A stretch of DNA of 64,000 nt from Candidatus Campbellbacteria bacterium. GTDB taxonomy: Bacteria > Patescibacteriota > Minisyncoccia > Phycocordibacterales > UBA1006. The position numbers and the translations under genes are program-made. Under the pieces are notes generated by a model. The model saw only the letters and a list, made by a program, of their open reading frames with translations. It did not search any database and was not told where the DNA came from. Positions 18,315-53,127 of the stretch are shown one piece after another; position 1 is the stretch's first letter; every line of letters begins with the position of its first letter. The stretch spans positions 10,794 to 74,793 of the forward strand of contig NZWR01000003.1 in NCBI GenBank assembly GCA_002698305.1. Reading direction: 5' to 3'.

Positions 18315-18496
18315 AGTAGCAGTTATATACAGCATTATAGTATGTTGTGGAAAAAAAGAAAATCTGTGAATAACTATGTTTTTCTGTTAATAAGTATCTC
18401 TAATAACTTTTTGTAAAATAAAAAAGTTCCTATTGAGTTTTTTTTAATAGTGTACTAATATGTGAGTCATTATCTTATTAATCTAATTAACATTGT
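18315..18496. other. dnaA-rpmH divergent intergenic region, candidate oriC / dnaA promoter region
   Basis: Two one-mismatch DnaA boxes in the same orientation, TGTGGAAAA (18346-18354) and TGTGAATAA (18365-18373), followed by very AT-rich sequence. Confidence 0.45.
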
Positions 18497-21270: not shown

Positions 21271-21331
21271 GTTGATATTGTACGTGTTTTAAGTATTCCT
21301 TCAAACTAAAAAGCAGCAATAATGCTCCTTG

Positions 21332-23176: not shown

Positions 23177-23244
23177 GACACTAGTATACCAAGTACCTGC
23201 ATTAAAATAAAACACAAAATCAATGGTCTATAGTGTGGAATTAT

Positions 23245-23266
23245 AAAAAACACTCTAAAGAGTGTT
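23245..23266 (-). terminator. terminator after the 550-aa gene
   Basis: AACACTCT..AGAGTGTT hairpin followed by a T-run on the minus strand. Confidence 0.65.
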
Positions 23267-24919: not shown

Positions 24920-24982
24920 AGTAGTACCTGTAGTATATCACGATGGAATTTTTGAGGAAAAAGAAAAACCGCATTCGCGATC

Positions 24983-27766: not shown

Positions 27767-27814
27767 GTTCTGATTATACTATCCTCGCGCTGTTTTGCTA
27801 AGTAAAAACCTTGG

Positions 27815-28834
27815 TTAGGAACCAAGGTTAATATTAAGCGTTGCTCTCCCGACTCCTTTTTGGAGAATTTTTTTAATACCTTCTACAGCTGTTTCTATTT
27901 GCAGGGAGCCAGATTCTCCATTGGTGGTAAGGAAAATTTGATTTTGTTTGGCAAAGTCTTGAGGGGCTTGGTCGCGTCCGTTTACATTCCATCTAACAAA
28001 TACATCAGTAAAATTTCGAGCTGTCGTTGAGAAATATACAGGGTGAAAGGCTAATCTGATGGTGTCTTTAAGAAGATTAGGGAAATTACGCAGCGATTTT
28101 TGAGTCAAGAGCCGTCCGTCAGTGTTCATCTCATAAAAAAGAATTTCCGGGTCGATTGCGGCTGTATCAATATTAATAACATTTTCAGCAAAGGAATTCT
28201 CGCGTCGGTCGTTAGAAGTTACACTAATACGTTCATTGGTAATAATCGGGTCTGCTGTAAATTCAAATGATTGGCGTCCAAACCCCGAAGACCGAACCTG
28301 GCGGTCATAATTTCGGTCCCAATAGTAAATAAGGTTTGGGGCATCGTTTGGTTCAATGAGGAGTGTTTCAGGGATTCCTGTTACGCGGATTTCAGACTGG
28401 CGAATAGGCAATGCTTTTCCTTTATAAAAAGGTGGGGTATAGCTATCAACCGTCTCCCACAACAAATCAATGTTTGATGGAGCAAAACCCAGTTCTTTAC
28501 GTAAAGAACGTCCCTGGTAATCAACGACAATAGTGATGTTGGTCGGTTCACCCGTGTTTCCGTTGGTAAAGCTGTAGTCACGTTCACCAAATCCAGAGAG
28601 GACACGCTGGCCATTTTTAAACCAAGAAATAAATTCATTATTAAGATTAAAACTGTAACTCGTCACCCGAAGATCAACCTGTTCGTTGGGTCCTGGAATT
28701 TCAGGTTTGATATCGACAGAAATATCATCAGCGCTATACAAATCAAATTGCTGAGCTCCCGTATGTTCAGCAAAGGTAAAAAAACAGGCACTGAACAAGA
28801 ACGCAAATATAAAAATGTGAGAAAGCTGTTTCAC
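27815..28834 (-). CDS. secreted hypothetical protein of the T4SS-like locus
   Basis: GTG start. Signal MKQLSHIFIFAFLFSACFFTFA. TATACT lies 6 nt upstream of the start. Confidence 0.6.
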   Translation of the reverse strand: MKQLSHIFIFAFLFSACFFTFAEHTGAQQFDLYSADDISVDIKPEIPGPNEQVDLRVTSYSFNLNNEFISWFKNGQRVLSGFGERDYSFTNGNTGEPTNITIVVDYQGRSLRKELGFAPSNIDLLWETVDSYTPPFYKGKALPIRQSEIRVTGIPETLLIEPNDAPNLIYYWDRNYDRQVRSSGFGRQSFEFTADPIITNERISVTSNDRRENSFAENVINIDTAAIDPEILFYEMNTDGRLLTQKSLRNFPNLLKDTIRLAFHPVYFSTTARNFTDVFVRWNVNGRDQAPQDFAKQNQIFLTTNGESGSLQIETAVEGIKKILQKGVGRATLNINLGS

Positions 28835-28890
28835 GTCATCAGTATACTATTTTTTCTGATTGTTTATAAGCCATATAAAAAGAACAGCTG

Positions 28891-29550
28891 CTACTGTCCT
28901 AGTTGTGGAATATTTCGGTGACTCTCTCCTGGGTTGAACATGTTATAGAACACCTCAATAGCTTGTTCAGTGTTTAATTGTTCTGATCGCACCCCAAAAC
29001 GAGAAAGCCCTCCTTTTACAATAGCAACACGCTGTTCAAGCTGGCTTCGTTGCTCTTCAAATTTCGCAGATTCTTCTTGGAAATTCTTCTTTTTACTACC
29101 CAAGAATAACTGTTGGAAAATATTTTGATCTGGAGCTTTGCTAAAGGCACTTCCAGTATATGGAACAACAACGTAGAATTTCTTAGACATTACATTGACT
29201 GAGTCGTTAAACCATTTAATGAATTCAATGTACTCACGCGTTTGAAGACGAAGCAATTCTTCTTCCTGCTGTTCAATCCGCCTTTCAAGAGTAAGAAGAT
29301 AGGGCTTGATATCATAACGTCGTGATTGCACAGCAATTTCAACTGGGAATTCAATAGAGTTTAAAAAGCCTTGGAACTGCATAATAACCGCCTGCTGCTC
29401 GTCAGGTGATTTTAACGCAATATTAATTGCTGAAGCTAGAAGAATAGCTCGCAAGCTCCCGTCTTCAAGAACGACAATACCATCCCGAATTTCTTTTACT
29501 GGAATAAAATCTTGCGTTCGTGATCCCGAATATTTTTTAGTCTCCGCCAT
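28891..29550 (-). CDS. cytoplasmic hypothetical protein of the T4SS-like locus
   Basis: 219 aa, no TM. DFIPVKEIRDGIVVLEDGSLRAILLASAINIALKSPDEQQAVI resembles N-terminal regions of Gram-positive conjugation ATPase-associated proteins. Weak, by eye. Confidence 0.55.
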   Translation of the reverse strand: MAETKKYSGSRTQDFIPVKEIRDGIVVLEDGSLRAILLASAINIALKSPDEQQAVIMQFQGFLNSIEFPVEIAVQSRRYDIKPYLLTLERRIEQQEEELLRLQTREYIEFIKWFNDSVNVMSKKFYVVVPYTGSAFSKAPDQNIFQQLFLGSKKKNFQEESAKFEEQRSQLEQRVAIVKGGLSRFGVRSEQLNTEQAIEVFYNMFNPGESHRNIPQLGQ

Positions 29551-29990
29551 AAGTATCCCTAGTATACCTTATTTTCAATAAGGTATACTAGGGATACTTC
29601 CCTGAACTTGTTTCAGGGTCCCCCATCATGAAAAAGTATTTTGTCTATATTCTTACTAATAAAAATCACACTGTTTTATATATTGGTATGACGGGTAATT
29701 TAAGGGAAAGAATTCTTAAACACAGAGTTGGAAACGCTGCTCCATTTATGACACAATATAATTACAAAAAACTAGTTTACTTTTGTAGGTGTTTAGACAA
29801 AGTAGAAGCACTGAAAAAAGAAAAACAAATAAAAAACTGGAGACGTGAATGGAAAATTACGCTTATAGAAAAACAAAATCCTCTGTGGGAGGATTTTTTT
29901 GATTACCTTGTTTAAGTTGTGGGTTCAGGCCCTGAAACAAGTTCAGGGCTTGGACTTTGACGAGTAACTAGTTACTCGTCAAAGTCCAAG
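29551..29990. mobile_element. GIY-YIG mini-cassette bracketed by perfect palindromes and inverted 19-nt hairpins
   Basis: Left: a 23-bp perfect inverted repeat, 29551-29573 with 29577-29599. Hairpin CCCTGAACTTGTTTCAGGG at 29600-29618 has its exact reverse complement at 29930-29948. Right: a 42-bp perfect palindrome at 29949-29990. Confidence 0.5.
29628..29915 (+). CDS. GIY-YIG nuclease family protein (YhbQ/UPF0213-like, 95 aa)
   Basis: KYFVYILTNKNHTVLYIGMTGNLRERILKHR...KEKQIKNWRREWK carries the GIY..YIG, Arg and Glu motifs. It is the only plus-strand gene inside the minus-strand T4SS-like block between 21.3 and 34 kb. Confidence 0.85.
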   Translation: MKKYFVYILTNKNHTVLYIGMTGNLRERILKHRVGNAAPFMTQYNYKKLVYFCRCLDKVEALKKEKQIKNWRREWKITLIEKQNPLWEDFFDYLV

Positions 29991-30391
29991 ATATCGAGGC
30001 TCCACGCAAGATCTGAAATTTTTTGATCGTTAGTTTCTTCAGGTAAATCGCCTTCTTTTGGAAAAGGTTTGTGGATTTGCTGTACATTTCGAGCCCCAGG
30101 TTCCGGATCTTTTTGTCGCCACAGATAGAATTTATTTGAAAAGCTGTATAGGATAAATGACTCTACCATTTCAATAAAAGGACGTCCATTTGGTTTGTAA
30201 AAAACCAAGGCAAGCGCAAAGCCCCCAATAGGTGCCCCAAGCAAGATGGCTGCAAATGTCGGCAGTGATTTGTAGAGAATAAAAATAATTCCTGCCCCAC
30301 CGACAAGGTATAAAGTTTCTCTAAACGTAAATGGACCAAATAGTTTGTCGGGTACATTGATAAATTGTGGCACTTCAAACCTCATTAACAT
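29972..30391 (-). CDS. PrgI/TcpE-type (VirB3-like) small membrane protein
   Basis: FEVPQFINVPDKLFGPFTFRETLYLVGGAGIIFILY followed by a second TM PIGGFALALVFY. This pattern is typical of the VirB3 analogues of Gram-positive T4SS. Confidence 0.65.
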   Translation of the reverse strand: MLMRFEVPQFINVPDKLFGPFTFRETLYLVGGAGIIFILYKSLPTFAAILLGAPIGGFALALVFYKPNGRPFIEMVESFILYSFSNKFYLWRQKDPEPGARNVQQIHKPFPKEGDLPEETNDQKISDLAWSLDILDFDE

Positions 30392-30438
30392 AAGTATAGC
30401 AAGTGCAAACTAAAAAGAAACATCGATGCTGATGTTTC

Positions 30439-31281
30439 TTAGTCTTTACTAATATCTTGCAAGCTTGGCTCAGATGATTGCTCTTTTTGGTATATGTGAG
30501 ATTCAACAGCTGGGGCAAACCCTTGTAGATGAATTTTTTTATCATGAGAATGATCAGGGGTATAGTTGCCTTGCCCAAAATCACGCCCTGTCGCTGCGCG
30601 AGTTTCTTCAGGAACAAACGCTGACAATGGATCGCCTTGTTTTAATATTTTCGTATCAGTTCGGTGCCCGCTAATTCCCTCAAGGTCTTTGTGAGTAATT
30701 TCTTCATTATAGCTGGTGGTGCTTTTCTCTAGCGTTGTTTGCGGTTCTTCGATGGTTTCATTATTTGCGACTTCTTTGTGTTCGGTAGCTCCTCCTAGAA
30801 TTGCAGCGACTTCTTTGTGAAGATGCGTATCAACAGAATCACGGGATTCATCTTCATCAACAAGGTGTACGCCAGAACCAGAAAGGTCACCTCGGAAATC
30901 ATCATGATCAATTGGTTCAAGGTATGGGTCAAATTGGACCGTTGTATCTTTTTGTGTGAGATGAGGCTGAACGTTTGTAGAAGTAAAGGATGCTTTTTGT
31001 ATGGGGGAGAGCACAGTGCTGTTAATATCGTTCACCAATGATTTAACTTTTTCTGGAAGGACACCTAAATGTTTCTGAATATGATTTGAGAGTTCATCTG
31101 GCTTACTCATTCCCACAATGACAAGCATAATTTCTCGATAGAGCTCGTCCTCTTGGTCAATACTGAGTTTGTGTGCGCGAGCAATCTCAGTAAGTTTTTT
31201 TGGCCATGGAAAATTTTTGACAGCTGATTTAATATTATCTGGAAGTTCTTCGATTTTCCGTTGAATAATGTCGTGTATCAT
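30439..31281 (-). CDS. hypothetical protein of the T4SS-like locus
   Basis: Start moved to ATG 31281 (MIHDIIQRK), with GGTATACT 6 nt upstream. No recognisable domain. Confidence 0.55.
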   Translation of the reverse strand: MIHDIIQRKIEELPDNIKSAVKNFPWPKKLTEIARAHKLSIDQEDELYREIMLVIVGMSKPDELSNHIQKHLGVLPEKVKSLVNDINSTVLSPIQKASFTSTNVQPHLTQKDTTVQFDPYLEPIDHDDFRGDLSGSGVHLVDEDESRDSVDTHLHKEVAAILGGATEHKEVANNETIEEPQTTLEKSTTSYNEEITHKDLEGISGHRTDTKILKQGDPLSAFVPEETRAATGRDFGQGNYTPDHSHDKKIHLQGFAPAVESHIYQKEQSSEPSLQDISKD

Positions 31282-31315
31282 GACCATAGTATACCTTAGT
31301 ACCTCCAAGGGATAA

Positions 31316-31340
31316 AATAAAAACACCATTAATGGTGTTT
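31316..31340 (-). terminator. hairpin terminator after the 104-aa gene
   Basis: Perfect palindrome AAACACCATTAATGGTGTTT with flanking A/T runs. Confidence 0.7.
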
Positions 31341-31655
31341 TTATTTGTGTTTATATATTTCTGTGTGAATCAGTTTTAGGATTTTTTGTATATCTTCAGT
31401 TTCTCGAGCTCGCAGAGCAATACTTATATTGTCATCGGCAGATTTTAAAGAAATCATATCAAGTAGGTAGCCAATAGCATTTTCTTGCACCTCTCGTGAT
31501 TCATCATTTCCTAGTGCAAATGATGTTTCAATTTTTTGTATATCTTTCGCCATATCTCCTGATTCTAGATATTCCTGAGTTTGGGTTGAACTATTAACAA
31601 AATACTCTGCTAGAAGCTCTGCCTGTTTAGACGTGTTGTTTGGTTCTGTTGTCAT
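31341..31655 (-). CDS. small acidic hypothetical protein of the T4SS-like locus
   Basis: 104-aa ORF 8 nt downstream of the VirB6-like gene, same strand. Confidence 0.5.
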   Translation of the reverse strand: MTTEPNNTSKQAELLAEYFVNSSTQTQEYLESGDMAKDIQKIETSFALGNDESREVQENAIGYLLDMISLKSADDNISIALRARETEDIQKILKLIHTEIYKHK

Positions 31656-31663
31656 AATAATTG

Positions 31664-33973
31664 TTAGTTACCTTTTTTCTCGTTTTTATATCGGGCCTTG
31701 CTGAGATCTCTGTCAAAATCCTTGCCATCGTTGGCAAACATTCCTCCTACTTTAGTTTTACGTTCTTTTCTTAATTCTTGAATACGAGGATTTTTCCCAA
31801 TCCAGCTGGCGAGATATCCAGCAGCAGCTCCACCTAAGGCTGCTCCAACATATGCACCTGCCCCAGGAAGAACGATTGATGTAATTGTTCCTCCTAATAC
31901 TGCACCAACGGTAGAAGCTTTTTTGGTATCACCATATCCACCTTGTTGTTCTCGCGCGTCTAGATACTGTTCTGTTCTTCTTCGACCATCCTGTGCAAAT
32001 GGAGTATTTGTATCCAAGATCTTTTGATCCTTGTCAGTTAGGTCATCTTTCCTGCCTTTAATTTCAACCTTCAGTTGGCCAATTTCAGCCTTGAGGCCAT
32101 CAGCTTTTCCAATCTTCTCATTGTCAATTGGCCTCCCAGCATCTTTATCATCTTGTATAAGTCTTCGTACATCCTTGAGGTCTTCTTGTTTTTTAGTAAC
32201 ATCCTCCTCTTTTTTTAGAATTTCATTTTCAATCTCTTTAACTCGTTTAACCTCAAAGCTAGGTTTTCCATTCTCATCAAGAAGAATATCCCCTGCCTTA
32301 GCTTCGTCATAGTTTCCTGGGCCAGCAAGCATTTCTCTTGTAGCATTTTCACTCTGAGCTTGAGCTTCGGTCATTCGCGTGTATGAACGAACCCCGTATG
32401 CACCATCTCGGTAGTTGTCTTCTTTGGTCGACATCCAGTCATTGAATTTAGTTGCTTTCTCTTCTTTTTCTTTTGCAATTCTTTCTTGTCGCGGCTTGAA
32501 TCCTTCTTTAACATTTAAGGCGTTCGTAGCTGTAATACCTGTTTGTTTTCCTAGGTATTGTGCTGCTTTTGTTTGCCTAAAATCAAAGGTTGATGATTGG
32601 GCGCGATCAGCAAGGTTGTATGCTGAACGACCAAGGCTTCCGCTTTTTGCAGCCAGGTTTTTAAATCGTTCTGATTTCATCGCCCGGCCTGCTACTGCCC
32701 CAACTGTTCCTCGTGCTGCTAATGCCGCTCCTCCAGTTGCAACACCAAGCCCAACAGCAGCTGCACCTCCAACGGCCTTGTTTACGACATGGCTGATAGT
32801 TCCGGCGATTTCTCCTGACATTTTTTGCGCCACTCTTTTTGAAAGCATGATAATGGCAACAATTCCAAGCATCGGAATAATGACGTAGAATATTTGTTTA
32901 ATAAAATCATTCGTTGCTCCTGATTCAGAAACAATATTGATATTCATGAATTTAATAGCAAGGAAGAGGAAAAAGAGAAAGGCTGCCGGCATAAAGGCCA
33001 TCTTAATAAGATCGTTCAGCCATTTTTTAAATCCTACATAAGGCAAGCTCTCCATTCCGGGGACCGTAATAGAGGCGAAAGCAAGGGGGGCAAGCACCAC
33101 GGTGATATATAAACCAATAGTTCTCCCAAGCATGAGTAAGGCTACCGACATAAAGGTGAAAATTATAACAGCGTTTATAATTCCGATAATAAAGACGAGC
33201 ACGAGCCTCACTCCTGTACTTGCATTACTTCCTCCTTCAGCACCAACTTCGTTGAGGATTTTTTGCGGATTGAATTTTGCTGCAATCGCCAATGAGACGG
33301 ACTCTTCTCCAGACAAATCATTAACCAAATCCCCATCATTGATGGCCTGCCCTTCTCCGTCAATAATTGTGGTGTTTTGAGCAGTACCACCAATATTGTT
33401 ATAGAACACAAACCCTAATACATTACCAAGATCAACCAAAAGAAATGAGAAAAATAAACTAAAGTTAATAGTTAGAGCCACCAGTATTGTTTTAACGAGT
33501 CGCTGCTTATCATCTCGTCCCGCCATACCGAGCACCATTTTGAACGCCATTACAAGTAGTGCAAATATAAACAATACATTCGTAAGATCACGTAATATTT
33601 CCCATCCTTCTACAATAAAACCAGCATCACGATAGGAGGAGCTTTGCAGGGTAAATTCCATGAAAAAGTCCAGCACCATTCCTGCAACCAAAACCAAGAA
33701 ACCTCCAACCGTAATAAGAAGCATTTGGAAAAAGTTTACAATTCCACACCCAAAGTCGTACCATGTACAGTCAAGATATCCGACATCCTGCGATCCAGCG
33801 GGTGTTGGTGGGTTGTTCGCGTCAAAACCGCCTCCTTCTACACCGCCGTCACCAGCACTGCCTTGTGCGTACACAACCGCGGGACTTATCCCTGACTCGT
33901 TCTGCGTAACAGGCGGAGTAACAATAGCAGTAAAAAAGACAAAAACTAGTAAAATCTTAATAAAGGTTTTCAT
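31664..33973 (-). CDS. polytopic VirB6/TrbL-like membrane protein with long Lys/Glu-rich coiled-coil region and C-terminal Gly-zipper TM
   Basis: Signal/TM at the N-terminus, at least 6 hydrophobic helices between residues ~70 and 420, then KEEDVTKKQEDLKDVRRLIQDDKD..., then GAVLGGTITSIVLPGAGAYVGAALGGAAAGYL. Confidence 0.6.
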   Translation of the reverse strand: MKTFIKILLVFVFFTAIVTPPVTQNESGISPAVVYAQGSAGDGGVEGGGFDANNPPTPAGSQDVGYLDCTWYDFGCGIVNFFQMLLITVGGFLVLVAGMVLDFFMEFTLQSSSYRDAGFIVEGWEILRDLTNVLFIFALLVMAFKMVLGMAGRDDKQRLVKTILVALTINFSLFFSFLLVDLGNVLGFVFYNNIGGTAQNTTIIDGEGQAINDGDLVNDLSGEESVSLAIAAKFNPQKILNEVGAEGGSNASTGVRLVLVFIIGIINAVIIFTFMSVALLMLGRTIGLYITVVLAPLAFASITVPGMESLPYVGFKKWLNDLIKMAFMPAAFLFFLFLAIKFMNINIVSESGATNDFIKQIFYVIIPMLGIVAIIMLSKRVAQKMSGEIAGTISHVVNKAVGGAAAVGLGVATGGAALAARGTVGAVAGRAMKSERFKNLAAKSGSLGRSAYNLADRAQSSTFDFRQTKAAQYLGKQTGITATNALNVKEGFKPRQERIAKEKEEKATKFNDWMSTKEDNYRDGAYGVRSYTRMTEAQAQSENATREMLAGPGNYDEAKAGDILLDENGKPSFEVKRVKEIENEILKKEEDVTKKQEDLKDVRRLIQDDKDAGRPIDNEKIGKADGLKAEIGQLKVEIKGRKDDLTDKDQKILDTNTPFAQDGRRRTEQYLDAREQQGGYGDTKKASTVGAVLGGTITSIVLPGAGAYVGAALGGAAAGYLASWIGKNPRIQELRKERKTKVGGMFANDGKDFDRDLSKARYKNEKKGN

Positions 33974-34112
33974 AAATATCTTTATTATATGTTATATGTG
34001 CTGGTTAGCATACTCTTTGTTTTCCTTTATTTATCCACAGTTGATAGCAAAAGCATTTACAGAGGTTGAAATTATATGTCATAATAAAGAAAATAATAAA
34101 AATCCATATACT

Positions 34113-34577
34113 ATGAAAAAGCTCATTTTTATTTTAGCTCTATTTGTGACTTTCTTCTCTCAAAATACTTTTGCCCAAAGCAACGCCCCTGAATTACAAC
34201 AAAGAGGTGGAGATATTATGCGTGAGTATTATGATGACTATAGAGAAGCAACACGAACTATTCTCAAGCAATCCTATCCGAATGCCTACGCAGACGGACT
34301 GTGGATTGAGGGAAAGAACTGGCTCGTGCTTAACAACTTTTATAACTGCAAAGATTCCGAGTTTTACTACTGGAGTGTGCTAATACAGCAATACAATTCT
34401 ACAACGGGTAAATATCAAAAAGGTGTGATTTACTATGCCTGCCCTACAAAGTGGCTAAAAAACGGTAAGTTTACCCCAAAGAGCCTTGCTAATACAACTA
34501 TTGTAGGAAAAAAGAAAGCATACACCGGAATGGAAGAGTATCTTACAGACAGCGAAGTAGCTTCAAACACACCGTAA
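34113..34577 (+). CDS. small secreted hypothetical protein
   Basis: Real start at ATG 34113 (MKKLIFILALFVTFFSQNTFAQS). The upstream part of ORF 33660-34577 is antisense to the VirB6-like gene. Confidence 0.6.
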   Translation: MKKLIFILALFVTFFSQNTFAQSNAPELQQRGGDIMREYYDDYREATRTILKQSYPNAYADGLWIEGKNWLVLNNFYNCKDSEFYYWSVLIQQYNSTTGKYQKGVIYYACPTKWLKNGKFTPKSLANTTIVGKKKAYTGMEEYLTDSEVASNTP

Positions 34578-34655
34578 ATATACGGTACAAGTTAAGACCA
34601 AAAGACCTTGTTATATGTTATATACAGGGTCTTTTTTATGTATAAATTTTCTCAA

Positions 34656-34686
34656 AACAAAAACCCTCAGTGCATGAGGGTTTTTT
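34656..34686 (-). terminator. terminator of the 880-aa gene
   Basis: ACCCTCA-gtgca-TGAGGGT with A/T runs. Confidence 0.75.
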
Positions 34687-34705
34687 AATTCAGAGCCAAG
34701 ATACC

Positions 34706-37348
34706 CTAATTATTGATTCCAGAAACAATTAATTGATAATCAAGTTTGCTGGCTGAATAGAAGTCTTTCCAACAATTAGTTCCGTCGGTATCGTTATCTC
34801 CTGCTCGGTTAATAACTTCAAATGATCCGGCATTACGACAGAAAAGATGACCTCGAGAACCTGCTGAGCCTGCTCGATTTGTTTTTGCATAGGCCCTGTC
34901 TACTCGGTACATATCTTTTATGGTAAGTTTGTTTCTATTTTCAGAATAAGGAAAATCATCATCAGGATAAAAGTCGTTAAAATATTGTTCTTTTTCTTGC
35001 GGCGAATTAAAACCAAGGATACTGTTTTCAATAGCTGAAGGTGCTGTCATGGTTCCTGTCTTTAGAACCGTAATAGTATTAGGTTGGTTCTGTAGGGCAG
35101 CTTCTGATTCAAGGAACGTTTTAAGCTGTGCATCATTTCTGACTGAATTATTGTTGTAGAATGCTAGAACATTACCTATTGGTGGAATAGTTGCATATGC
35201 AGGGTCGTATTCATCAATAAACTCAGCAAGCTCAAATATTTTATCATCTTGATCAATACCCTCGTTGTTGACAATACCTGAAATAGTTGCTCGGTCTGTT
35301 CCAACGGCATATGCCTTAAATACCATACAATCTAGAGCAGATCCGTATGATTGCTCGATACTGCTACTTACTTGTTTAAGTCTTGTTTGAGCAATAACAA
35401 TAAATTGTTGGTTTGATAGATTTGGTGTCAGTGCGTGGAAAATTTGACGAAGCTCAAGTTTTCTTGCTGGGTCTGTTTGATTACGCCATAACCACCACCC
35501 AATACTAAACACAGCTTGTTTAACAGCCTCTTCGTCATTTTCCAGTGCAGATGTAAAGAGAATATTTTCACCTTGAATGTATTCAGGGTTATTGTAGTAT
35601 CCGCTATCTATTGCTAGACCTAATAACTCTTGTTTTTGTGTAGCGCTTAATGCATCCCAATCCTCACTAAAGAGTACAAGATTTTCATTAACAGGAATCT
35701 TTTGTACATTAAAGTCTGCTAGAATTTCTGTTTTAAGTAGTCCAAGAGACAAGATGACTCGTTGTAAGTCGTTGTACCTGAACTGGTTTTCATTTGAGAT
35801 AGTCTCAAGGGTATCAAAGATATTATCAAGTTGTCCTTGCATTATTGAACCACCAGGAATAGTAACACTTGGATCTTGAACCATCGTCTTTGTTTCGTTT
35901 AGACCAATTTCGTTTATTTGGTTACCCTCATCATCACCAAATATTGGTAAGACGTCTTGATACCGCTCTTCCCATCCTGTGTCAGGTCCAGGGATACATT
36001 TATCGAATTCAAATAATACATTAGCCGCCGTCGCTACCTCGCTTCGTATTTCTTCGTAAGCTTCACGTTCTTCAACTGCCATTTGAATATTATTTTCGAG
36101 TACTTCTTGGAAGTTAATAATAATTTGAGGTCCATCATTTATTCCATTTCCTATATCTTCTGGTCCACCAATATAGAGATCCTGATTGATTCCCCCACCT
36201 GGAGCACCAGGAGGATTCCCACCTGAAGTTCCAGATCCATTTATATCTATATTTCCAGGATTGATACCAAGTACATCATATTCGGATTGGTATTGGATGT
36301 TTCCGTCAGGGTTAAAAGTACTTACTGCATCAGAGCGACTAAAAAATGCTTTTGTCGCTTCATTTGAAATTTCCCCTAATCCATTTTGTATAAGCCCATC
36401 AGCTACTCGACCCACGCTTTGTATTAAGGCAGAGACAAGCCCGTCGGAAAGGTTGGCAGCAGATGTGGTGTCTACTTTAAGTGCTTCATTTAACTGACTT
36501 GCGATTTGGTCCCCTGGTGTTTCTACGACCTCACGTTTACAGACTTTTTTTCCGTCTGCATTTGTTACCTCTTCCTCACAGGTTTTTTTAGAAAGAACTC
36601 CAGTCGTAACAGAAAGTTCTTTATTTTGAAGGTCAATTGAACTTACTACCCCTTGGCTTAACTCAGAATTAATAACTGAACGGAGACCTGTGGGTGAATT
36701 TGGTAATTCACCCAAAAGAGCGTACGCAGCTAATCCTCCGCTAGCAAGATCATTATTAAAATCATTTCGTGACGATCCTGATTGCGCTAAGTAACTATCA
36801 AGAGTTTGAGCGTTTCCTGAGACAATATTATTAAAATCATTAATCAGAAGGTTCTGACCAGCGTACTGTGCAACGTATTCTGCAGACTGTCGCTGGTTAA
36901 GAAATTGTGCGTTTTGGAAAAGTTCCCAATTGCTTTGTGCCTGACCGCCTGGGTCGTTAGGATCACCCTGATTATTATTTGCTTGGGAGATGGCAAGGCT
37001 GTTGGCATAACTAAATGAGTCAGATAAAAACTCATACTCAGTACCGCGAAGAAGTTCACCATAATTATTGATAAACCCTGCTTCACCATCAAAACCACCA
37101 GTTGCCCAGTTGATTGTGTCCTCCGAGAGTTTTCTAAGCATGCGATCTGCAATTTCAAGAACAAGTGGTTCCAAAACTTGCTTGGACAAACCTTCCCAAA
37201 CTTCTTCACCGGTTGTTAAGAAGTTAATAATAGAGTTGAATATGTTCGCTGCGGCATCGACTTGAGCTTCAGCTTTCTGTGGCTGAGCCATAAAAAGAGA
37301 GAAACTTAATATTGAAGCAGTCAAGAAGGTAGTAAGAAACTTTTTCAT
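34706..37348 (-). CDS. large secreted hypothetical protein (880 aa), first gene of the T4SS-like block
   Basis: Signal MKKFLTTFLTASILSFSLFMAQPQKAEA. No TM afterwards and no recognisable catalytic motif. TGGTATACT lies 9 nt upstream of the ATG. Confidence 0.65.
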   Translation of the reverse strand: MKKFLTTFLTASILSFSLFMAQPQKAEAQVDAAANIFNSIINFLTTGEEVWEGLSKQVLEPLVLEIADRMLRKLSEDTINWATGGFDGEAGFINNYGELLRGTEYEFLSDSFSYANSLAISQANNNQGDPNDPGGQAQSNWELFQNAQFLNQRQSAEYVAQYAGQNLLINDFNNIVSGNAQTLDSYLAQSGSSRNDFNNDLASGGLAAYALLGELPNSPTGLRSVINSELSQGVVSSIDLQNKELSVTTGVLSKKTCEEEVTNADGKKVCKREVVETPGDQIASQLNEALKVDTTSAANLSDGLVSALIQSVGRVADGLIQNGLGEISNEATKAFFSRSDAVSTFNPDGNIQYQSEYDVLGINPGNIDINGSGTSGGNPPGAPGGGINQDLYIGGPEDIGNGINDGPQIIINFQEVLENNIQMAVEEREAYEEIRSEVATAANVLFEFDKCIPGPDTGWEERYQDVLPIFGDDEGNQINEIGLNETKTMVQDPSVTIPGGSIMQGQLDNIFDTLETISNENQFRYNDLQRVILSLGLLKTEILADFNVQKIPVNENLVLFSEDWDALSATQKQELLGLAIDSGYYNNPEYIQGENILFTSALENDEEAVKQAVFSIGWWLWRNQTDPARKLELRQIFHALTPNLSNQQFIVIAQTRLKQVSSSIEQSYGSALDCMVFKAYAVGTDRATISGIVNNEGIDQDDKIFELAEFIDEYDPAYATIPPIGNVLAFYNNNSVRNDAQLKTFLESEAALQNQPNTITVLKTGTMTAPSAIENSILGFNSPQEKEQYFNDFYPDDDFPYSENRNKLTIKDMYRVDRAYAKTNRAGSAGSRGHLFCRNAGSFEVINRAGDNDTDGTNCWKDFYSASKLDYQLIVSGINN

Positions 37349-37465
37349 ATGCCTTAAAGTATACCACCCATTATTCAGGGATAAAACACGCAGGACTCTA
37401 TTGATAGCTTTTGTGATTTGATTATACTTGGAGGTACTTACTTATTTTTAATCTACACTTATATT

Positions 37466-44594: not shown

Positions 44595-45314
44595 ATGAAA
44601 CATAGCTATAAAATTATGGGAATGACGTGCGATAGTTGCAAAGAAAAGATTACTCAAGCGTTACAGTCAATTCCAGAAATATCTGATGTGAAAATAAACA
44701 GAGAACAGGAAACAGCAGAGGTTTTTATGAATGAGCATGTTCAAACACCTACTATGCAGAAATCATTAGATAAAATAGGTAATTATCGAATTTCAATGAA
44801 CGCAGAAATATCTATATCTTCTATGAAAAAGAGTAGCAGTCATATAAAAGATTTAATTCCTTTGTTTGTGATTGTTGGAGCTGTTCTCCTTTTCTCTATT
44901 ATTACTACCCTAACTACTGATCAAGATTTTAGTTTTGGAATGAGAATGTTTATGGGAGGATTTTTTGTGGTCTTTGGAACATTGAAAGCTATTAAACTCA
45001 AAGACTTTGCCATTGCCTACAAGGAGTACGACCTTCTTGCAATGCGAAGTACGTCATATGCCTATTCATATCCATTTATTGAACTTTGTTTAGGTATCTT
45101 ATATTTCACAAATCTTGCACCTTTTGTAACAAATATTATAACTATTTTTATTATGGGAATAGGAGCTGTTGGTGTATATAGAAAATTGCGTAAAAAAGAA
45201 GAAATACCTTGTGCCTGTCTTGGAACCGTATTCAAGGTGCCAATGACGTGGGTAACACTAGTAGAAAATTTACTCATGGTTGCTATGGCAATTATTATGA
45301 TAGTATTGATGTAA
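44595..45314 (+). CDS. module 4: heavy-metal-associated (HMA) domain fused to a MauE/DoxX-like membrane domain
   Basis: YKIMGMTCDSCKEKITQAL (GMTCxxC). Four TM helices with a C-terminal IPCACLG motif. TGaTATAAT lies 6 nt upstream of the ATG. Confidence 0.75.
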   Translation: MKHSYKIMGMTCDSCKEKITQALQSIPEISDVKINREQETAEVFMNEHVQTPTMQKSLDKIGNYRISMNAEISISSMKKSSSHIKDLIPLFVIVGAVLLFSIITTLTTDQDFSFGMRMFMGGFFVVFGTLKAIKLKDFAIAYKEYDLLAMRSTSYAYSYPFIELCLGILYFTNLAPFVTNIITIFIMGIGAVGVYRKLRKKEEIPCACLGTVFKVPMTWVTLVENLLMVAMAIIMIVLM

Positions 45315-45318
45315 TTAT

Positions 45319-45660
45319 ATGTTTCAGAAGACATACAAATTCATAGGAATATTTATAATACTACTGGTACTTGTTGGGCACCATTCTTTTCAAGCAGAGG
45401 CGATGGAAGCTCCAAGTCACCATAATCAAGAAATTTCTTGCATAGGCCACGATTGCCATCATCAAGCAGAAATGGAGATTTGTGAGAAACTACAAGGCGA
45501 TGAAATACAGATAGTTACTGAATTTGTAGTCCTTCTTGAAAATTCTCATTGTGATTTTATTCACACAAGCGAAACAAATACTGTTCCAAATGAGGTATAT
45601 GAAAAATACCGACAGCGGATACCCTTATCCCAAAAACAACTCGCACGTCCCCACTTGTAA
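45319..45660 (+). CDS. module 4: small His/Cys-rich exported protein (putative metal binding)
   Basis: N-terminal TM/signal FIGIFIILLVLVG, then HHSFQAEAMEAPSHHNQEISCIGHDCHHQAEMEICE. Confidence 0.5.
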   Translation: MFQKTYKFIGIFIILLVLVGHHSFQAEAMEAPSHHNQEISCIGHDCHHQAEMEICEKLQGDEIQIVTEFVVLLENSHCDFIHTSETNTVPNEVYEKYRQRIPLSQKQLARPHL

Positions 45661-45709
45661 AATCACAATATCTTTTTATTCGTTTATTTATATAAAAACT
45701 AAAAATACT

Positions 45710-46114
45710 ATGAAAACAAATACACTAATTGCAGTAATTATCTCACTTCTTATTGGAGGAGGGATTGGTTATGCAATGAATAACAATAATGCCCCTATAG
45801 CAGAAGCACCAATGATGATGGATCACTCTATGATGAACCACTCAATGAATATGAATGATATAGGTATGGAAGCAATGATGATGGATATGACAGCCCGCAT
45901 GGAAGGAAAAACAGGAGACGAGCTTGATAGAATTTTCCTTGAAGATATGATCGTTCACCACCAAGGAGCTGTTGATATGGCAATTATCATCAAAGAGAAC
46001 ACCGAGCGACCAGAACTCAAAGCATTTGCACAAGAAATCATTGATGTGCAAGATCAAGAAATCAATATGATGAAGTCTTGGTTGACCGAATGGTTTCTAA
46101 TTGAAGAAAACTAA
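45710..46114 (+). CDS. module 4: DUF305-family protein (metal-related four-helix protein)
   Basis: Start at ATG 45710 (MKTNTLIAVIISLL). Met/His-rich MMMDHSMMNHSMNMN. DUF305 motif FLEDMIVHHQGAVDMA. Confidence 0.7.
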   Translation: MKTNTLIAVIISLLIGGGIGYAMNNNNAPIAEAPMMMDHSMMNHSMNMNDIGMEAMMMDMTARMEGKTGDELDRIFLEDMIVHHQGAVDMAIIIKENTERPELKAFAQEIIDVQDQEINMMKSWLTEWFLIEEN

Positions 46115-46144
46115 ACTTAATCGAGGTGTGAAGATAGGATACTT

Positions 46145-46168
46145 GTTCTAATAGTGCCCCGCATCGTG
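46145..46168 (+). repeat. degenerate fourth copy of the 24-nt left-arm motif
   Basis: GTTCTAATAGTGCCCCGCATCGTG matches GTTCGAACACTGTCCCACATCGTG at 18 of 24 positions. Followed by a bidirectional terminator. Confidence 0.45.
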
Positions 46169-46201
46169 AAAACAAAAAACAGCGCACGCTGTTTTTTGTT
46201 T

Positions 46202-47095
46202 TCAATGACGATGATTGCTGTGTTCCTCGTGTTCTTCTTCGGCTTCTTCAGGATGGTCTTGTTCTTCATATTCATCTCCGTGCTCTTCCTCGTGATTAGA
46301 TTCCTCATCTATAACTGTCATACCTTCTTCATGTTCGTGACTATGTCCTAGTGCTGACGCAATTCCCGTCATAACTAATACCCCTAAAACAAGCGCAGCA
46401 AGCATTTGGCCAACATTCTTTCTATCTTTGAGGATTGTTTTTAATGGAAATAGATCAGTAAATACAATTCCTAAGAAAAAGGTTGCAGTGGCCCCAAGAA
46501 GATAGGCTTGGAGAATTGCACTTTGACCGAGTAACAGCCCGATAGCAATACCAATAAAAATTGATAAGGCGGTCCCAAAATTACGATAGCTTGCTTCGGT
46601 GGTGGTGTATCCTGATTTTCTCAGTACCAGAAATTCTGAAATTTCTTGAGGCGTCTCATGCAAAATAATTGAAAGAGCTGTTGAGCTACCCACTAATGGA
46701 CTGACACCAAATGATGCAACCAAGAGCATTCCATCGGCAATATTATGTACCGCATCACCTATGAGTAATTTCCATGCTGATTTTTTTGAACCTTTGCTGT
46801 GGTCATGGTCCACACCTGCATGTCGGTGCGGCGAAAGGATGTTGTGCAGTATAATATATGCAACAAGACCAATCGCAAATGAAATAATTGCGTTACCCGG
46901 GCTTAGTATTTCAAGGGTTTCTCTTCCTAAAAGAAAGCTTGTTACAAGAAATACTCCAGCACTGACAGCAGTGAGCACGGTAAGATTGCTATTAATAAAT
47001 TCTGCAATGCGGCGGTTTGATCTAACCAACGCTACCCCTAAAATTGATACAAAGGAAATAACTAATCCATATAATAAAACAAGTTCTATATTCAT
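46202..47095 (-). CDS. ZIP-family zinc/metal transporter with His/Glu-rich C-terminal tail
   Basis: HNIADGMLLVASF and HETPQEISEFLVL (ZIP signature helices). Tail HSHEHEEG...EEEHEEHSNHRH. Confidence 0.8.
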   Translation of the reverse strand: MNIELVLLYGLVISFVSILGVALVRSNRRIAEFINSNLTVLTAVSAGVFLVTSFLLGRETLEILSPGNAIISFAIGLVAYIILHNILSPHRHAGVDHDHSKGSKKSAWKLLIGDAVHNIADGMLLVASFGVSPLVGSSTALSIILHETPQEISEFLVLRKSGYTTTEASYRNFGTALSIFIGIAIGLLLGQSAILQAYLLGATATFFLGIVFTDLFPLKTILKDRKNVGQMLAALVLGVLVMTGIASALGHSHEHEEGMTVIDEESNHEEEHGDEYEEQDHPEEAEEEHEEHSNHRH

Positions 47096-47105
47096 ATGTC
47101 GTTAT

Positions 47106-47145
47106 CATATATAAATGCAAATTATTTGCAAATTAATTATTGCAA
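47106..47145. promoter_or_regulatory. two Fur/Zur-box-like palindromes in the divergent ZIP/fur promoter region
   Basis: TGCAAAT-T-ATTTGCA (47106-47120, perfect 7-1-7) and TTGCAATTATTTGCAA (47130-47145), between the starts at 47095 and 47174. Confidence 0.65.
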
Positions 47146-47173
47146 TTATTTGCAAAAATGAAATGATTATTAT

Positions 47174-47569
47174 ATGTACCGAGATATTATAAAAAAAAGT
47201 GGTTTGTCGATAACAACTAAAAGAATAGCACTCTTGTCTGCGCTGGATAAAGCACAGAGGCCTGTTACCATTGATGAATTGCGAAATCAAATGACTGATA
47301 CCATGGATACATCAACTATGTATCGGTCACTCAAGAAGCTTGTCGATGCGGGCATTGTCTATCAGACTGATTTTCGTGACGGGGTTTCGTATTTTGAGCT
47401 TCAAGGTGATAACCATCATCACCATGTGGTGTGTACTGAGTGTAAGTCACGCAAAAGTATCGACATGTGTGTTAACAAGAATTTCAACAAGGTCGAAAAA
47501 GACACGGGATACACTATTACCAATCATATTTTTGAACTCTTTGGATTATGCGAAAACTGCTCATCATAA
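47174..47569 (+). CDS. Fur-family metalloregulator (probably Zur)
   Basis: Winged-helix N-terminus (TTKRIALLSALDKAQRPVTIDEL), HHHHVVCTECKS and C-terminal CENC metal sites. Confidence 0.85.
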   Translation: MYRDIIKKSGLSITTKRIALLSALDKAQRPVTIDELRNQMTDTMDTSTMYRSLKKLVDAGIVYQTDFRDGVSYFELQGDNHHHHVVCTECKSRKSIDMCVNKNFNKVEKDTGYTITNHIFELFGLCENCSS

Positions 47570-48636
47570 TATGCCTTCTCTTTTCTTCTATTGGTGTCTA
47601 TGCGCAAGAAGCTGCTAACTCTCAACCAGAAGAAATATATACAACGAGCTATGTATCAGGAACGGTTATTGAAAAAGAAATAAATGAAAACGGTTTTGTT
47701 AATTACCGAACGCGTCTTCGTGATGGAAGAATAATAGACGTTGATACGTATGGAGAAGTTATAGAGGAAGGTGACTCTATTTATTTAGAACACTTAGAAG
47801 ACTTGGGTGAATACAATTTCATCACTGTTAATCGGAGCACCAGTGTTATCCTACTCCTCATTCTTTTTGTGGGAAGTATTATTGTGCTTGCTAAAAAGAA
47901 AGGCCTACGCTCACTTGGAAGTTTGATAATAAGTATGGCGCTCTTATTCTTTGGTTTGGTTCCTTTGCTGCTTTCTGGTGTTGATCCAGTACTGGTTACC
48001 ATATTGTTTGGGCTTGGGGTGTTGTTTGTCAGCATCTTTGTCACCCATGGATTTAATTACCAAAGTTTGGTCTCCTTTTTGGGTTCATTTGGGTCGGTGC
48101 TCTTGGCCATCGTGTTAATTGCGTTGGTAAGCGAGTATTCATCTTTAACGGGACTGATTAATGACGAGATTCAGTTCCTCTCTTTTGAATCGGAAAAAGT
48201 GCTGAATCTTACGAGAATTATCTCAGCATCAATTATTATCGGAGTGCTTGGAGTTCTGGATGATATTACGATAACGCAGGTTGCGGTAGTGCGTGAATTA
48301 TCATCTGATACGACACTGACCCGGTCACATATTTTTACCAAGGCTTTGCGTGTTGGAAGAGATCATATTTCATCACTGGTTAATACCCTCGTTTTTGCGT
48401 ACGTCGGGGCTACACTGCCAATGATTATGTTTATTACCTTGTTAGATATCCCTTTCTATATACTAATCAGCCAGGAATTTATTTTTATTGAAATTATTCG
48501 CTCGCTGATTGGGGCTATTGCATTGACGCTTGCTGTTCCTTTGACGACATGGCTTGCTACTCACGTCTTCTTGGGGCATATCCACCGAGATGCGTGTACT
48601 TTGGATTCAGCATGTGCTCATCATCACCATCATTAA
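47548..48636 (+). CDS. YibE/F-like polytopic membrane protein with C-terminal His tag-like tail
   Basis: Signal plus extracytoplasmic N-domain, about 7 TM helices, GVLGVLDDITITQVAVV motif, ends CAHHHHH. Overlaps the fur stop by 22 nt. Confidence 0.6.
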   Translation: MRKLLIIICLLFSSIGVYAQEAANSQPEEIYTTSYVSGTVIEKEINENGFVNYRTRLRDGRIIDVDTYGEVIEEGDSIYLEHLEDLGEYNFITVNRSTSVILLLILFVGSIIVLAKKKGLRSLGSLIISMALLFFGLVPLLLSGVDPVLVTILFGLGVLFVSIFVTHGFNYQSLVSFLGSFGSVLLAIVLIALVSEYSSLTGLINDEIQFLSFESEKVLNLTRIISASIIIGVLGVLDDITITQVAVVRELSSDTTLTRSHIFTKALRVGRDHISSLVNTLVFAYVGATLPMIMFITLLDIPFYILISQEFIFIEIIRSLIGAIALTLAVPLTTWLATHVFLGHIHRDACTLDSACAHHHHH

Positions 48637-51421: not shown

Positions 51422-51497
51422 ATAACACAGCTATAGTAGCATAATATTGCTTTTGGGCAATAAATACCGGTCATGTGGTGTGTGCTATGATATCTGT

Positions 51498-51965
51498 ATG
51501 AATGTAAGCCCTCCTTATAAATATACTCCAGGATACATTATGCTTCCGCTAGAGCAGGACATACAAGGCCTTAATGATCAAATTACTCTTTTTGGTGATA
51601 CTTACACTCTGAAAAAAGAGTTTCACGTTACCTTGATCTATGCTGGTTATTTGTGCTCTCAATACTCTAGCATTAATGAGGAGAAGATTCTTCGGGTATT
51701 TAACAAATTTGTGGTACATAATGGGGTAGAAGAAGTGACCTATTTCCCAGAGTATCGTCTCGTAACTCACCCAGATGGAAGGAAAAGTATTATTCAAAAG
51801 GTTGAGATTGAAAACTTTAATGAATTATATGAAATACTTTCAGACAAGCTAGGGATGGTTATTCCAAAGCCCGTGACGCATATAACTATTTACGTCAATA
51901 CAGGCCAGGGGATTGCGGTTGAGACGGAGGATAAGTTCAAAAAAAGCTTTGAACTACGTGTATAA
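51498..51965 (+). CDS. 2H phosphoesterase superfamily protein (LigT / 2'-5' RNA ligase-like)
   Basis: Two H-x-T-x motifs, FHVTLIY and THITIY. Start at ATG 51498, with TGcTATGAT 6 nt upstream. Confidence 0.65.
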   Translation: MNVSPPYKYTPGYIMLPLEQDIQGLNDQITLFGDTYTLKKEFHVTLIYAGYLCSQYSSINEEKILRVFNKFVVHNGVEEVTYFPEYRLVTHPDGRKSIIQKVEIENFNELYEILSDKLGMVIPKPVTHITIYVNTGQGIAVETEDKFKKSFELRV

Positions 51966-52004
51966 TACGTTTCACAGTTTCATGAATATATGCTTAACAG
52001 GCGA

Positions 52005-52579
52005 TGTTTCATATGAAACATCATTTACTGGTTGCATGAATTAAAAAAACAACATTCTTTATCTAGGTTTAGAAATTAGGTAATATTCTCTATTCTTCTG
52101 ATTCTATGTTTTTTGTTTTGCCTGTCGATATATACAACATAAAGATCAATTTGTGTTTCATATGAAACTCCATGCTTTTTGATATAAGCTAGCATAGTTT
52201 TTTTGAATTTCTGGATTTTCTTTGCATTAAAGTTTTCTGCTGGGTTATACAATGTTTCATATGAAACATTCGCATTGGTGCACTGGATGCTTTTAACTTC
52301 TATAAAATGTATACGATCATCTTTTTGAGCAACGATATCGATTTCACCTATTGGAATGGTAAAGTTTCTCTCTATAAGGTAAAATCCTGATTTAGAGAGG
52401 TATTCACAGCAAATTTCCTCACCTTTTTCTCCTATTTTTTGAGTGCGCGACGTGAAAACCTTCATAGTAGTAGTATAACAGAGTATGAGCAGTTTTTAGT
52501 TATATATGTTTCATATGAAACATATATAATTTTATAATAGTGTTTCATAAGTTTTGGTATGTGTATTTCACGTGAAACC
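52005..52579. repeat. cluster of five parS-like 16-bp palindromes
   Basis: TGTTTCATATGAAACA at 52005-52020, 52253-52268 and 52507-52522. TGTTTCATATGAAACT at 52154-52169. TATTTCACGTGAAACC at 52564-52579. Canonical parS is TGTTNCACGTGAAACA. Confidence 0.55.
52076..52465 (-). CDS. yraN: YraN-family (UPF0102) endonuclease-like protein
   Basis: GEKGEEICCEYLSKSGFYLIERNFTIPIGEIDIVAQKDDRIHFIEVKS. TATACT lies 6 nt upstream of the ATG. Confidence 0.8.
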   Translation of the reverse strand: MKVFTSRTQKIGEKGEEICCEYLSKSGFYLIERNFTIPIGEIDIVAQKDDRIHFIEVKSIQCTNANVSYETLYNPAENFNAKKIQKFKKTMLAYIKKHGVSYETQIDLYVVYIDRQNKKHRIRRIENIT

Positions 52580-52854
52580 ATATCGTATATAGCTATTAGG
52601 GACTTTTCTTTAAAAAAGTCTTTTTTAAATTACTTTTTACTGTCCTTTATAAAAAGCCATCTTTTTTGTCTTTTTCCCCGTTATGCCCAAAGTTATCCAC
52701 AGCTTGACTCACTTTAAAGAGTTGTTTCCTGAGACAGCTTATCTTTGTTAGATATTTGATCTGCTACTCTACTGGCCGTAAGACATATATCTTAAAATAA
52801 ATTGCGTCTTTTTTTATTATGTTGTGTGTTTCGTTTCCTGAGTTCAAAAAGTGC

Positions 52855-52882
52855 TTGATATTTGTGTAATTGTGCATATACT
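52855..52882 (+). promoter_or_regulatory. promoter of tRNA-Arg
   Basis: TTGATA (52855-52860), 16 nt, TATACT (52877-52882), about 27 nt before the tRNA 5' end. Confidence 0.5.
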
Positions 52883-52908
52883 TTAGTCAGCTTATATAAA
52901 AAAGCATC

Positions 52909-52980
52909 TCCACCTGTGGTGAAATGGATATCACAACGGTCTTCGGAACCGTTATTCCAGGTTCGAGTCCTGGCGGGTGG
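52909..52980 (+). tRNA. tRNA-Arg (anticodon UCG), no encoded CCA
   Basis: Manual cloverleaf: acceptor CCACCTG/CGGGTGG (one G:U), D-arm GTGA-AATGGATA-TCAC, anticodon arm ACGGT-CTTCGGA-ACCGT, 4-nt variable loop, T-arm CCAGG-TTCGAGT-CCTGG. Confidence 0.8.
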
Positions 52981-53127
52981 ACATATTCGAAAAAGTAACA
53001 AATACAATGTATTTGTTACTTTTTTAGAGCCTAAGACTCTTTACAGAAAAGGCGTTTGAATTAATACCTCGGGCTAGTTATTTTGTTTTTCTCAAAAAAA
53101 GCTATATTAAATAAAAACAAAGACATA

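Follow-up and report, generated by a model that had tools for sequence, protein, structure and literature searches.

Introduction

The chromosomal parS sites of the ParABS system, as represented by Bacillus subtilis and Caulobacter, are 16-bp palindromes with the consensus TGTTNCACGTGAAACA. The element is known, and so are its dense clusters and its occurrence inside coding sequences; one of the B. subtilis sites is located within spo0J. Dense origin-proximal clusters of parS comprise 22 sites in Myxococcus, 21 in Streptomyces, 10 in Corynebacterium and the sites parS1-4 in Pseudomonas, and nearly all published chromosomal consensus sequences have a CACGTG centre (PMC7022226 Table 1). Noc-binding sites (NBS), which are bound by a paralogue of ParB, have a related palindromic architecture: G at position 1 and A at position 6 of the half-site distinguish parS from the Noc site, the half-site of which has A1 and C6 (PMC7383237). 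Plasmid centromeres built of tandem repeats, such as sopC and the parS of P1, carry multiple sites for a partition protein in a short stretch.

Here we describe an array of five palindromes of this kind in a 64-kb stretch (the window) of the genome of a marine Candidatus Campbellbacteria bacterium, a member of CPR/Patescibacteria. The array shares with chromosomal parS the 16-bp palindrome with identical arms and the bases G1 and A6, an apparently origin-proximal location with rarity elsewhere (within 83 kb), and the presence of copies inside a coding sequence. It differs in that the centre is TA in four of the five copies, and generally pyrimidine-purine (YR) in CPR and Clostridia, rather than CG; in that, unlike the arrays of many Firmicutes, it is not located beside parAB; and in being fixed inside one particular gene across a whole radiation. 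Like the dense clusters, and like a cluster that we found in a Christensenella genome bin, it would provide several ParB loading sites near oriC, and with the Christensenella cluster it also shares the mixture of cores. Unlike the dense clusters, it is small and tight (575 bp for the five sites) and has at its centre a coding gene that contains some of the copies in frame; the clusters of the organisms named above adjoin parAB or lie a few kb off, which this array does not. The array resembles the NBS in its architecture, but G1 and A6 in nine of its ten half-sites make it parS-type. With plasmid centromeres it has in common the multiplicity of putative partition-protein sites in a short stretch, but its spacing is irregular, the similarity does not reach past a core of 16-18 bp, no partition operon is adjacent and the context is one of chromosomal housekeeping genes.

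Results

Five palindromic sites in and around yraN

Pattern searches and a reading of positions 51600-53000 confirm the five 16-bp sites that the initial annotation of the window had located; four have a TA core and one a CG core, and none is assigned a strand. They surround and enter the yraN/UPF0102 gene (52076..52465, minus strand), which encodes a protein of 129 amino acids with a PD-(D/E)xK nuclease fold (Pfam PF02021). Site 1 (TGTTTCATATGAAACA, 52005..52020), a perfect TA-core copy in the middle of an 18-bp palindrome, lies within the 110-bp gap separating the stop codons of a plus-strand open reading frame (51447-51965) and of yraN. Two TA-core copies are inside yraN: site 2 (TGTTTCATATGAAACT, 52154..52169), which matches at 15 of 16 positions, and site 3 (52253..52268), which is perfect. 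Site 4 (52507..52522), again perfect and with a TA core, is 42 bp upstream of the yraN start codon and forms the middle of a perfect palindrome, which measures 30 bp (52500-52529) and not the 28 bp first reported. Site 5 (TATTTCACGTGAAACC, 52564..52579) has the canonical CACGTG core and agrees with TGTTTCACGTGAAACA at 14 of 16 positions. Half-sites on the plus strand accompany the full sites. Those given earlier as lying at 51969-51983 proved to be two direct copies of GTTTCA, starting at 51969 and 51977 (51969-51974 and 51977-51982), and an isolated TGTTTCA between sites 4 and 5 is present as claimed, one base away from the coordinates 52542-52548 first assigned to it, at 52541-52547. The first codons of yraN (MKVFTSR) contain at 52449-52459 the sequence GACGTGAAAAC, which, apart from an additional A, is like a half-site of parS; YraN homologues keep MK[VQ]FTS as their N-terminus.

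The distances between successive sites are irregular (149, 99, 254 and 57 bp), and similarity between the five copies is confined to the 16-18 bp core, with flanks that are unalike. With up to three mismatches allowed, the 64-kb window contains five matches against 1.06 expected, and none of 100 dinucleotide-preserving shuffles attains five. The sole match outside the cluster, with three mismatches at 14575, is at chance level, in keeping with the earlier statement that the window has no further full copy. The 10-kb flanks to the left and right of the window contain no YR-core site with up to two mismatches, and no comparable group of sites was found elsewhere in the 83 kb of window and flanks. 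Nine independent metagenome assemblies agree in every base of the 801-bp array region.

Several classes of repeated or structured element were considered and rejected. The copies have no common flanks, which rules out a mobile repeat or MITE, and the Rfam matches are only the three tRNAs, which rules out an RNA element. A plasmid-type iterated centromere is ruled out by the irregular spacing, the unalike flanks and the lack of par genes within 10 kb on either side of the array. A dif/Xer site, a single 28-bp element of the terminus, is ruled out by the presence of five copies beside a skew minimum that marks the origin.

The arms are those of parS and the centre is pyrimidine-purine

Compared with the arms TGTTNCA and TGAAACA, three of the sites match at 14 of 14 positions, one at 13 and one at 12. 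The parS-type bases G1 and A6 are found in nine of the ten half-sites: both halves of every TA-core copy (eight half-sites) and one half of site 5. The left half of site 5 shows A1 with A6. The motif had been described as parS-like, and the identity of its arms with those of canonical parS and its G1 and A6 bear this out; a Noc-binding site is ruled out, as C6 occurs in no half-site and A1 in one half-site only. The CG centre of the published parS consensus is present at 52564-52579 alone, the other four sites having TA.

The distribution of the TA core in other genomes was assessed by a scan of 185,579 reference genomes, one per species, with the 18-mer ATGTTTCATATGAAACAT. The 18-mer occurs at no fewer than 120 loci, against roughly 10-20 by our own estimate of chance, and the lineages in which the listed matches accumulate are users of parS, among them Clostridia, Bacilli, Helicobacter and CPR. 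A ParB HMM was built from the fetched 8-kb loci and applied to them at a threshold of E <=1e-30; of the 120 loci among the matches listed, 35 contain a gene for ParB or Noc, and all 35 are non-CPR. In these 35 loci the distance between a TA-core site and the gene ranges from tens of bp to several kb, and sites with CG, TG and CA cores lie alongside. The co-occurrence of TA, TG and CA cores with CG cores at parB genes suggests that the natural motif is TGTTTCAYRTGAAACA. The view that the TA core belongs to a parS variant, put forward from this one locus, is thus substantiated in 35 others: judged by the company it keeps, the TA core is a natural variant of parS, and the YR cores of natural sites show that the centre would need only to be pyrimidine-purine.

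Three of the reference loci merit separate mention. The Christensenella genome bin (L132:5981-7430) has 13 sites with CG, TA, TG and CA cores in about 1.4 kb, 2.5-4 kb from parB. A Spirochaetia genome bin (L035:7710-7913) has three copies of the TA-core 18-mer exactly 93 bp apart, a spacing that suggests a tandem repeat carrying the site. In Dethiothermospora halolimnae (L059), a 4.4-kb contig with about 220x coverage contains a parB gene and three TA-core sites; its short length and very high coverage would suit either a plasmid or a repeat that has collapsed.

The array is centred on yraN across CPR lineages

Among the matches listed in the reference scan, the motif is on the yraN gene in nine loci, namely eight of the ten labelled CPR and one titled 'bacterium' (L094). 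The lineages with an array on yraN in these genome loci are Saccharibacteria, Sungbacteria, Paceibacteria and Zambryskibacteria. Their arrays consist of one to nine sites with mixed cores, some of them perfect copies of the canonical TGTTTCACGTGAAACA; one locus (L133) has a single site, beside yraN. No YraN match was found in the non-CPR loci among the listed matches of the TA-core 18-mer. Four relatives were viewed in 20 kb of context. Three of them have four or five YR-core sites on yraN and elsewhere just a few non-YR matches with two mismatches, and in the fourth (L140) there are two sites, both degenerate and upstream of yraN.

An independent sample was assembled from 80 metagenome loci (L145-L224, 686 kb) picked by the YraN peptide [IL]HF[IF]EVKS alone. 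The density of sites with up to two mismatches is 4.0/kb within yraN and falls with distance from the gene, to 1.18/kb at 0-0.5 kb, 0.60/kb at 0.5-1 kb, 0.38/kb at 1-2 kb, 0.14/kb at 2-3 kb and 0.00-0.016/kb beyond 3 kb; shuffled sequence gives 0.009/kb. At least one site is found within 500 bp of yraN in 70 of the 80 loci, and at least three in 44. The cores in this sample are TA (58), CA (56), CG (52) and TG (29), and 87% of all cores are YR. The genes next to yraN, in the 31 loci of at least 10 kb, include the CCA-adding enzyme in 25, exonuclease III in 20 and dnaA in two. The array is kept on yraN in almost every CPR locus examined, and this comparison of sequences shows a position that would have been inherited across Patescibacteria.

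The number of sites within the gene varies. Close YraN homologues contain one to four V-S-[Y/R/H]-E-T pentapeptides, mostly at two homologous positions, and some homologues start with MFHMK, which corresponds to a parS site placed over the start codon. In one yraN of Saccharibacteria (L037:1214-1675) the series VSYET...VSRET...VSYET is found within a 30-residue in-frame insert, and another (L025:2587-3141) encodes four pentapeptides of the V-S-x-E-T type, the extra copies having been gained as in-frame insertions. Such extra in-frame copies show that the number of sites turns over inside yraN. In Nomurabacteria (L067:892-2168), a parS-like cluster is located beside the genes of the CCA-adding enzyme and exonuclease III, with no yraN open reading frame in the fetched 5 kb; this array may have outlived its host gene.

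Intragenic sites constrain codons, and the protein seems to tolerate them

As first noted, the two intragenic copies of the window both read V-S-Y-E-T, and they correspond to residues 100-104 (site 2) and 67-71 (site 3) of the 129-residue protein. The initial annotation had also proposed that the DNA motif was imposed on the coding sequence, or tolerated in it, and codon usage confirms the imposition. In the YraN genes of the 80 metagenome loci we compared the codons of 59 V-S-x-E-T motifs with those elsewhere in the same genes. Valine is encoded by GTT in 59 of 59 motifs (35% elsewhere) and glutamate by GAA, likewise in 59 of 59 (69% elsewhere). Serine is encoded by TCA in 42 of 59 motifs and never by AGY, which accounts for 32% elsewhere. 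The x codon ends with T in 53 of 59 cases, and the codon preceding the motif in 39 of 58. The fixed codon bases are exactly the positions of parS, which shows conservation of the nucleotide sequence and not of the peptide; the intragenic copies are accordingly kept at the level of DNA. One of the three reading frames of the palindrome contains TGA, and the V-S-x-E-T frame is the one used in yraN. Read in the orientation of yraN, the loci have 56 CA cores against 29 TG cores, a twofold difference. In frame, CA gives His and TG gives Cys, so the excess of CA fits a filter at the protein level on the middle residue, by which the protein appears to select the versions of the core that are retained.

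The YraN protein of the window (MAQ77003.1, from a marine "Candidatus Campbellbacteria bacterium") matches Pfam PF02021 with 60.7 bits against a cut-off of 23.6. By exact-sequence look-up, the sequence is present as well in the genome bin GCA_002291735.1 and among contigs from Tara Oceans. In an alignment of 28 YraN sequences, G40-E-I-D43 and E56-V-K58, which contain the D...E-x-K catalytic residues, are invariant. The AF2 model has a pLDDT of 85.5, and its best match among solved structures is 3FOV, a protein of unknown function that we take to be a member of the UPF0102 family, followed by Hjc resolvases. In the model, the peptide of site 2 (V100-S-Y-E-T104) is at a junction of loop and strand and that of site 3 (V67-S-Y-E-T71) is inside a low-confidence loop (residues 63-74); related YraN proteins have V-S-x-E-T at the position homologous to site 3. 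Given the loop placement, the YraN fold and the invariant catalytic residues, the modelled peptides look tolerated rather than functional. In Southlakia epibionticum, the only annotated UPF0102 domain is part of a non-essential fusion with RNase HII (SEML1_0521; PMC10633639 Tables S1/S2).

Genomic neighbourhood and the replication origin

The genes for tRNA-Pro and tRNA-Arg flank the yraN locus with its array, and the window also encodes the CCA-adding enzyme, exonuclease III and a Xer-like recombinase. The gene annotation of the window places dnaA at 16956-18335; dnaN and dnaA occupy 15.6-18.3 kb and are followed by rnpA, yidC and jag. Other genes of the window are ppa, tig and clpP, a T4SS-like cluster and a metal-homeostasis group. 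The T4SS-like block (20308-37348, minus strand) encodes a TseH-like effector, a TraG/VirB4-type P-loop ATPase, a PrgI-family protein and peptidoglycan hydrolases, together with several large proteins without any Pfam match. The metal-homeostasis group (44595-48636) consists of an HMA/MauE protein, DUF305, a ZIP transporter, Fur and YibE/F.

An origin-proximal placement, about 34 kb from dnaA, had been proposed for the array. The first site is 33.7 kb from dnaA, and the GC skew agrees with the proposal: cumulative skew over the stitched 83 kb is V-shaped with a minimum at about 35.4 kb, and the genes change from the minus to the plus strand at 37349-37417. The skew minimum and the strand switch together put the array about 15 kb from the presumed origin, and by these compositional signs the array is shown to be probably origin-proximal. 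The likely replication origin (35400-37420) is about 19 kb from dnaA and does not adjoin it; no cluster of DnaA boxes was found at 35400-37420. Three DnaA boxes of the window are perfect (5331, 34031 and 52693), and the last of these (TTATCCACA, 52693-52701) is located in the intergenic region of yraN and tRNA-Arg. The window has 26 DnaA boxes against 21.8 expected, which is no enrichment, and with a single perfect box at 52693 the possibility of oriC at the cluster itself was rejected.

ParA and ParB

No parA or parB gene had been seen in the window, and every search upheld this. A regular expression and the home-built ParB HMM revealed no ParB-like open reading frame in the window and its 10-kb flanks (83 kb), no Pfam family of the ParA or ParB type is present among the annotated genes of the window, and no par genes lie within 10 kb of the array on either side. 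The relatives gave the same outcome, with no ParBc Pfam match in the 20-kb yraN neighbourhoods of the four relatives, no ParB gene in the 686 kb around yraN of the 80 related metagenome loci, and no ParB detected by the regular expression or the HMM in any fetched CPR locus. This consistent absence from the window, its flanks and the fetched CPR loci indicates that the array is unlinked to parAB. When a database of 5.8 billion proteins was searched with the ParB profile, every named source among the best 120 matches was one of the Clostridia.

Both proteins are recorded in Southlakia epibionticum, a member of Saccharibacteria: ParA (SEML1_0183, K03496; Wang et al. 2023, PMC10633639 Table S1) and ParB (SEML1_0184, K03497, with PF02195 and PF17762; PMC10633639). 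In Tn-seq, they were classed first as causing a growth defect and then as essential (PMC10633639). Our literature searches found no paper containing the TA-core 16-mer and no paper joining parS and ParB with Patescibacteria; those on Saccharibacteria or Parcubacteria with ParB returned only irrelevant matches. No link of UPF0102/YraN to parS was found in the literature either, the one match being an unrelated B. subtilis regulator named YraN.

Discussion

The five palindromes most probably constitute a parS array, that is, the ParB-loading chromosomal centromere of this Campbellbacteria genome. This reading is favoured because the comparison with other genomes supports parS, and not because of a ParB gene. 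In the proposed mechanism, ParB dimers would recognise the GTTTCA arms, form a CTP-dependent clamp at every site and then slide onto the flanking DNA. A partition complex would form about 15 kb from the replication origin, and it would be moved by ParA, or load SMC, or both; the ParB itself would be encoded elsewhere in this genome. The TA and TG/CA cores may be what CpG decay leaves in an AT-rich genome, and ParB would tolerate them. The intragenic copies occupy the single frame in which the palindrome is read as V-S-[Y/R/H]-E-T, a loop peptide that looks harmless.

A stronger version, which we regard as unlikely, makes the yraN-embedded array the ancestral centromere of Patescibacteria, unlinked from parAB and functionally coupled to YraN. 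The occupancy by ParB might, for example, gate the expression of yraN, or YraN might act on the DNA of replication intermediates or of the centromere; in lineages without ParB, YraN itself might read the sites.

That YraN alone recognises the palindromes, binding or cutting them either for autoregulation or as a site-specific nuclease, is very improbable. Such a role would suit the centring of the array on yraN in almost every CPR locus examined, the lack of a visible ParB gene near the array, and a protein of unknown function with the fold of DNA-cutting enzymes. Yet the TA-core sequence clusters by parB or noc in 35 non-CPR loci, all of them without a YraN match, the arms equal the parS consensus at the positions that determine specificity, and a nuclease with targets inside its own gene would be self-destructive. 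There is similarly little likelihood that the sites are operators of an ordinary transcription factor controlling yraN and its neighbours. Site 4 does overlap a promoter-like match, on the plus strand, opposite to yraN, but promoter-like sites in the region are fewer than in shuffled sequence (5 vs 7.7). Moreover, two to four copies are inside or downstream of the coding sequence, the flanking genes vary between lineages as the motif stays constant, the density profile extends 3 kb to either side of yraN, and the motif equals parS.

It is highly improbable that the array serves the partition of an integrated mobile element of the plasmid or ICE type rather than being the centromere of the chromosome itself. 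The flanking tRNA-Pro and tRNA-Arg genes, the T4SS-like cluster at 20-37 kb and a tyrosine recombinase gene 9 kb away would suit this explanation, but the array is set in a housekeeping gene order (S15, xer, exoIII, cca, yraN ... HU, rny, clpP, tig, ppa) that is kept in distant Paceibacteria and partly in Saccharibacteria, no parAB operon adjoins it, and its spacing is irregular, without iteron-like flanks. Palindromes that arose by chance in AT-rich DNA, hairpins or terminators, and a recombination site of the Xer/dif type, to which the AT-rich genome (38% GC), a 30-bp palindrome of about dif size and a nearby xer-like gene might point, are effectively refuted by the comparative data, as the sequence is kept across classes, 0 of 100 shuffles attain the observed count, no Rfam family matches the array region, its single terminator-like match is over the tRNA-Arg gene, and there are five copies rather than one, near the origin rather than the terminus. 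All these rivals fit poorly because the motif adjoins parB genes in loci without a YraN match, because the flanking genes vary and the motif does not, and because the housekeeping gene order is conserved and chance is excluded statistically.

For the parS array, three features appear to be new, and our literature searches turned up no paper on any of them: a centre that is degenerate to pyrimidine-purine, an array set apart from parAB, and its radiation-wide conservation inside one gene and in one frame. Natural parS sites would accept every pyrimidine-purine centre where the textbook consensus gives CG alone, so that searches based on the consensus would miss sites in AT-rich genomes. The array also presents a case of dual coding, in which a putative DNA-binding site is kept in a protein-coding frame and the protein is held to V-S-x-E-T loops. 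CPR, or Patescibacteria, make up a large share of bacterial diversity, and chromosome organisation and segregation in these organisms are almost unknown. The yraN parS array can be located by sequence alone and may therefore provide a marker of the centromere and the origin domain for thousands of uncultured genomes. Saccharibacteria are genetically tractable, and the function of ParB and parS would be testable there.
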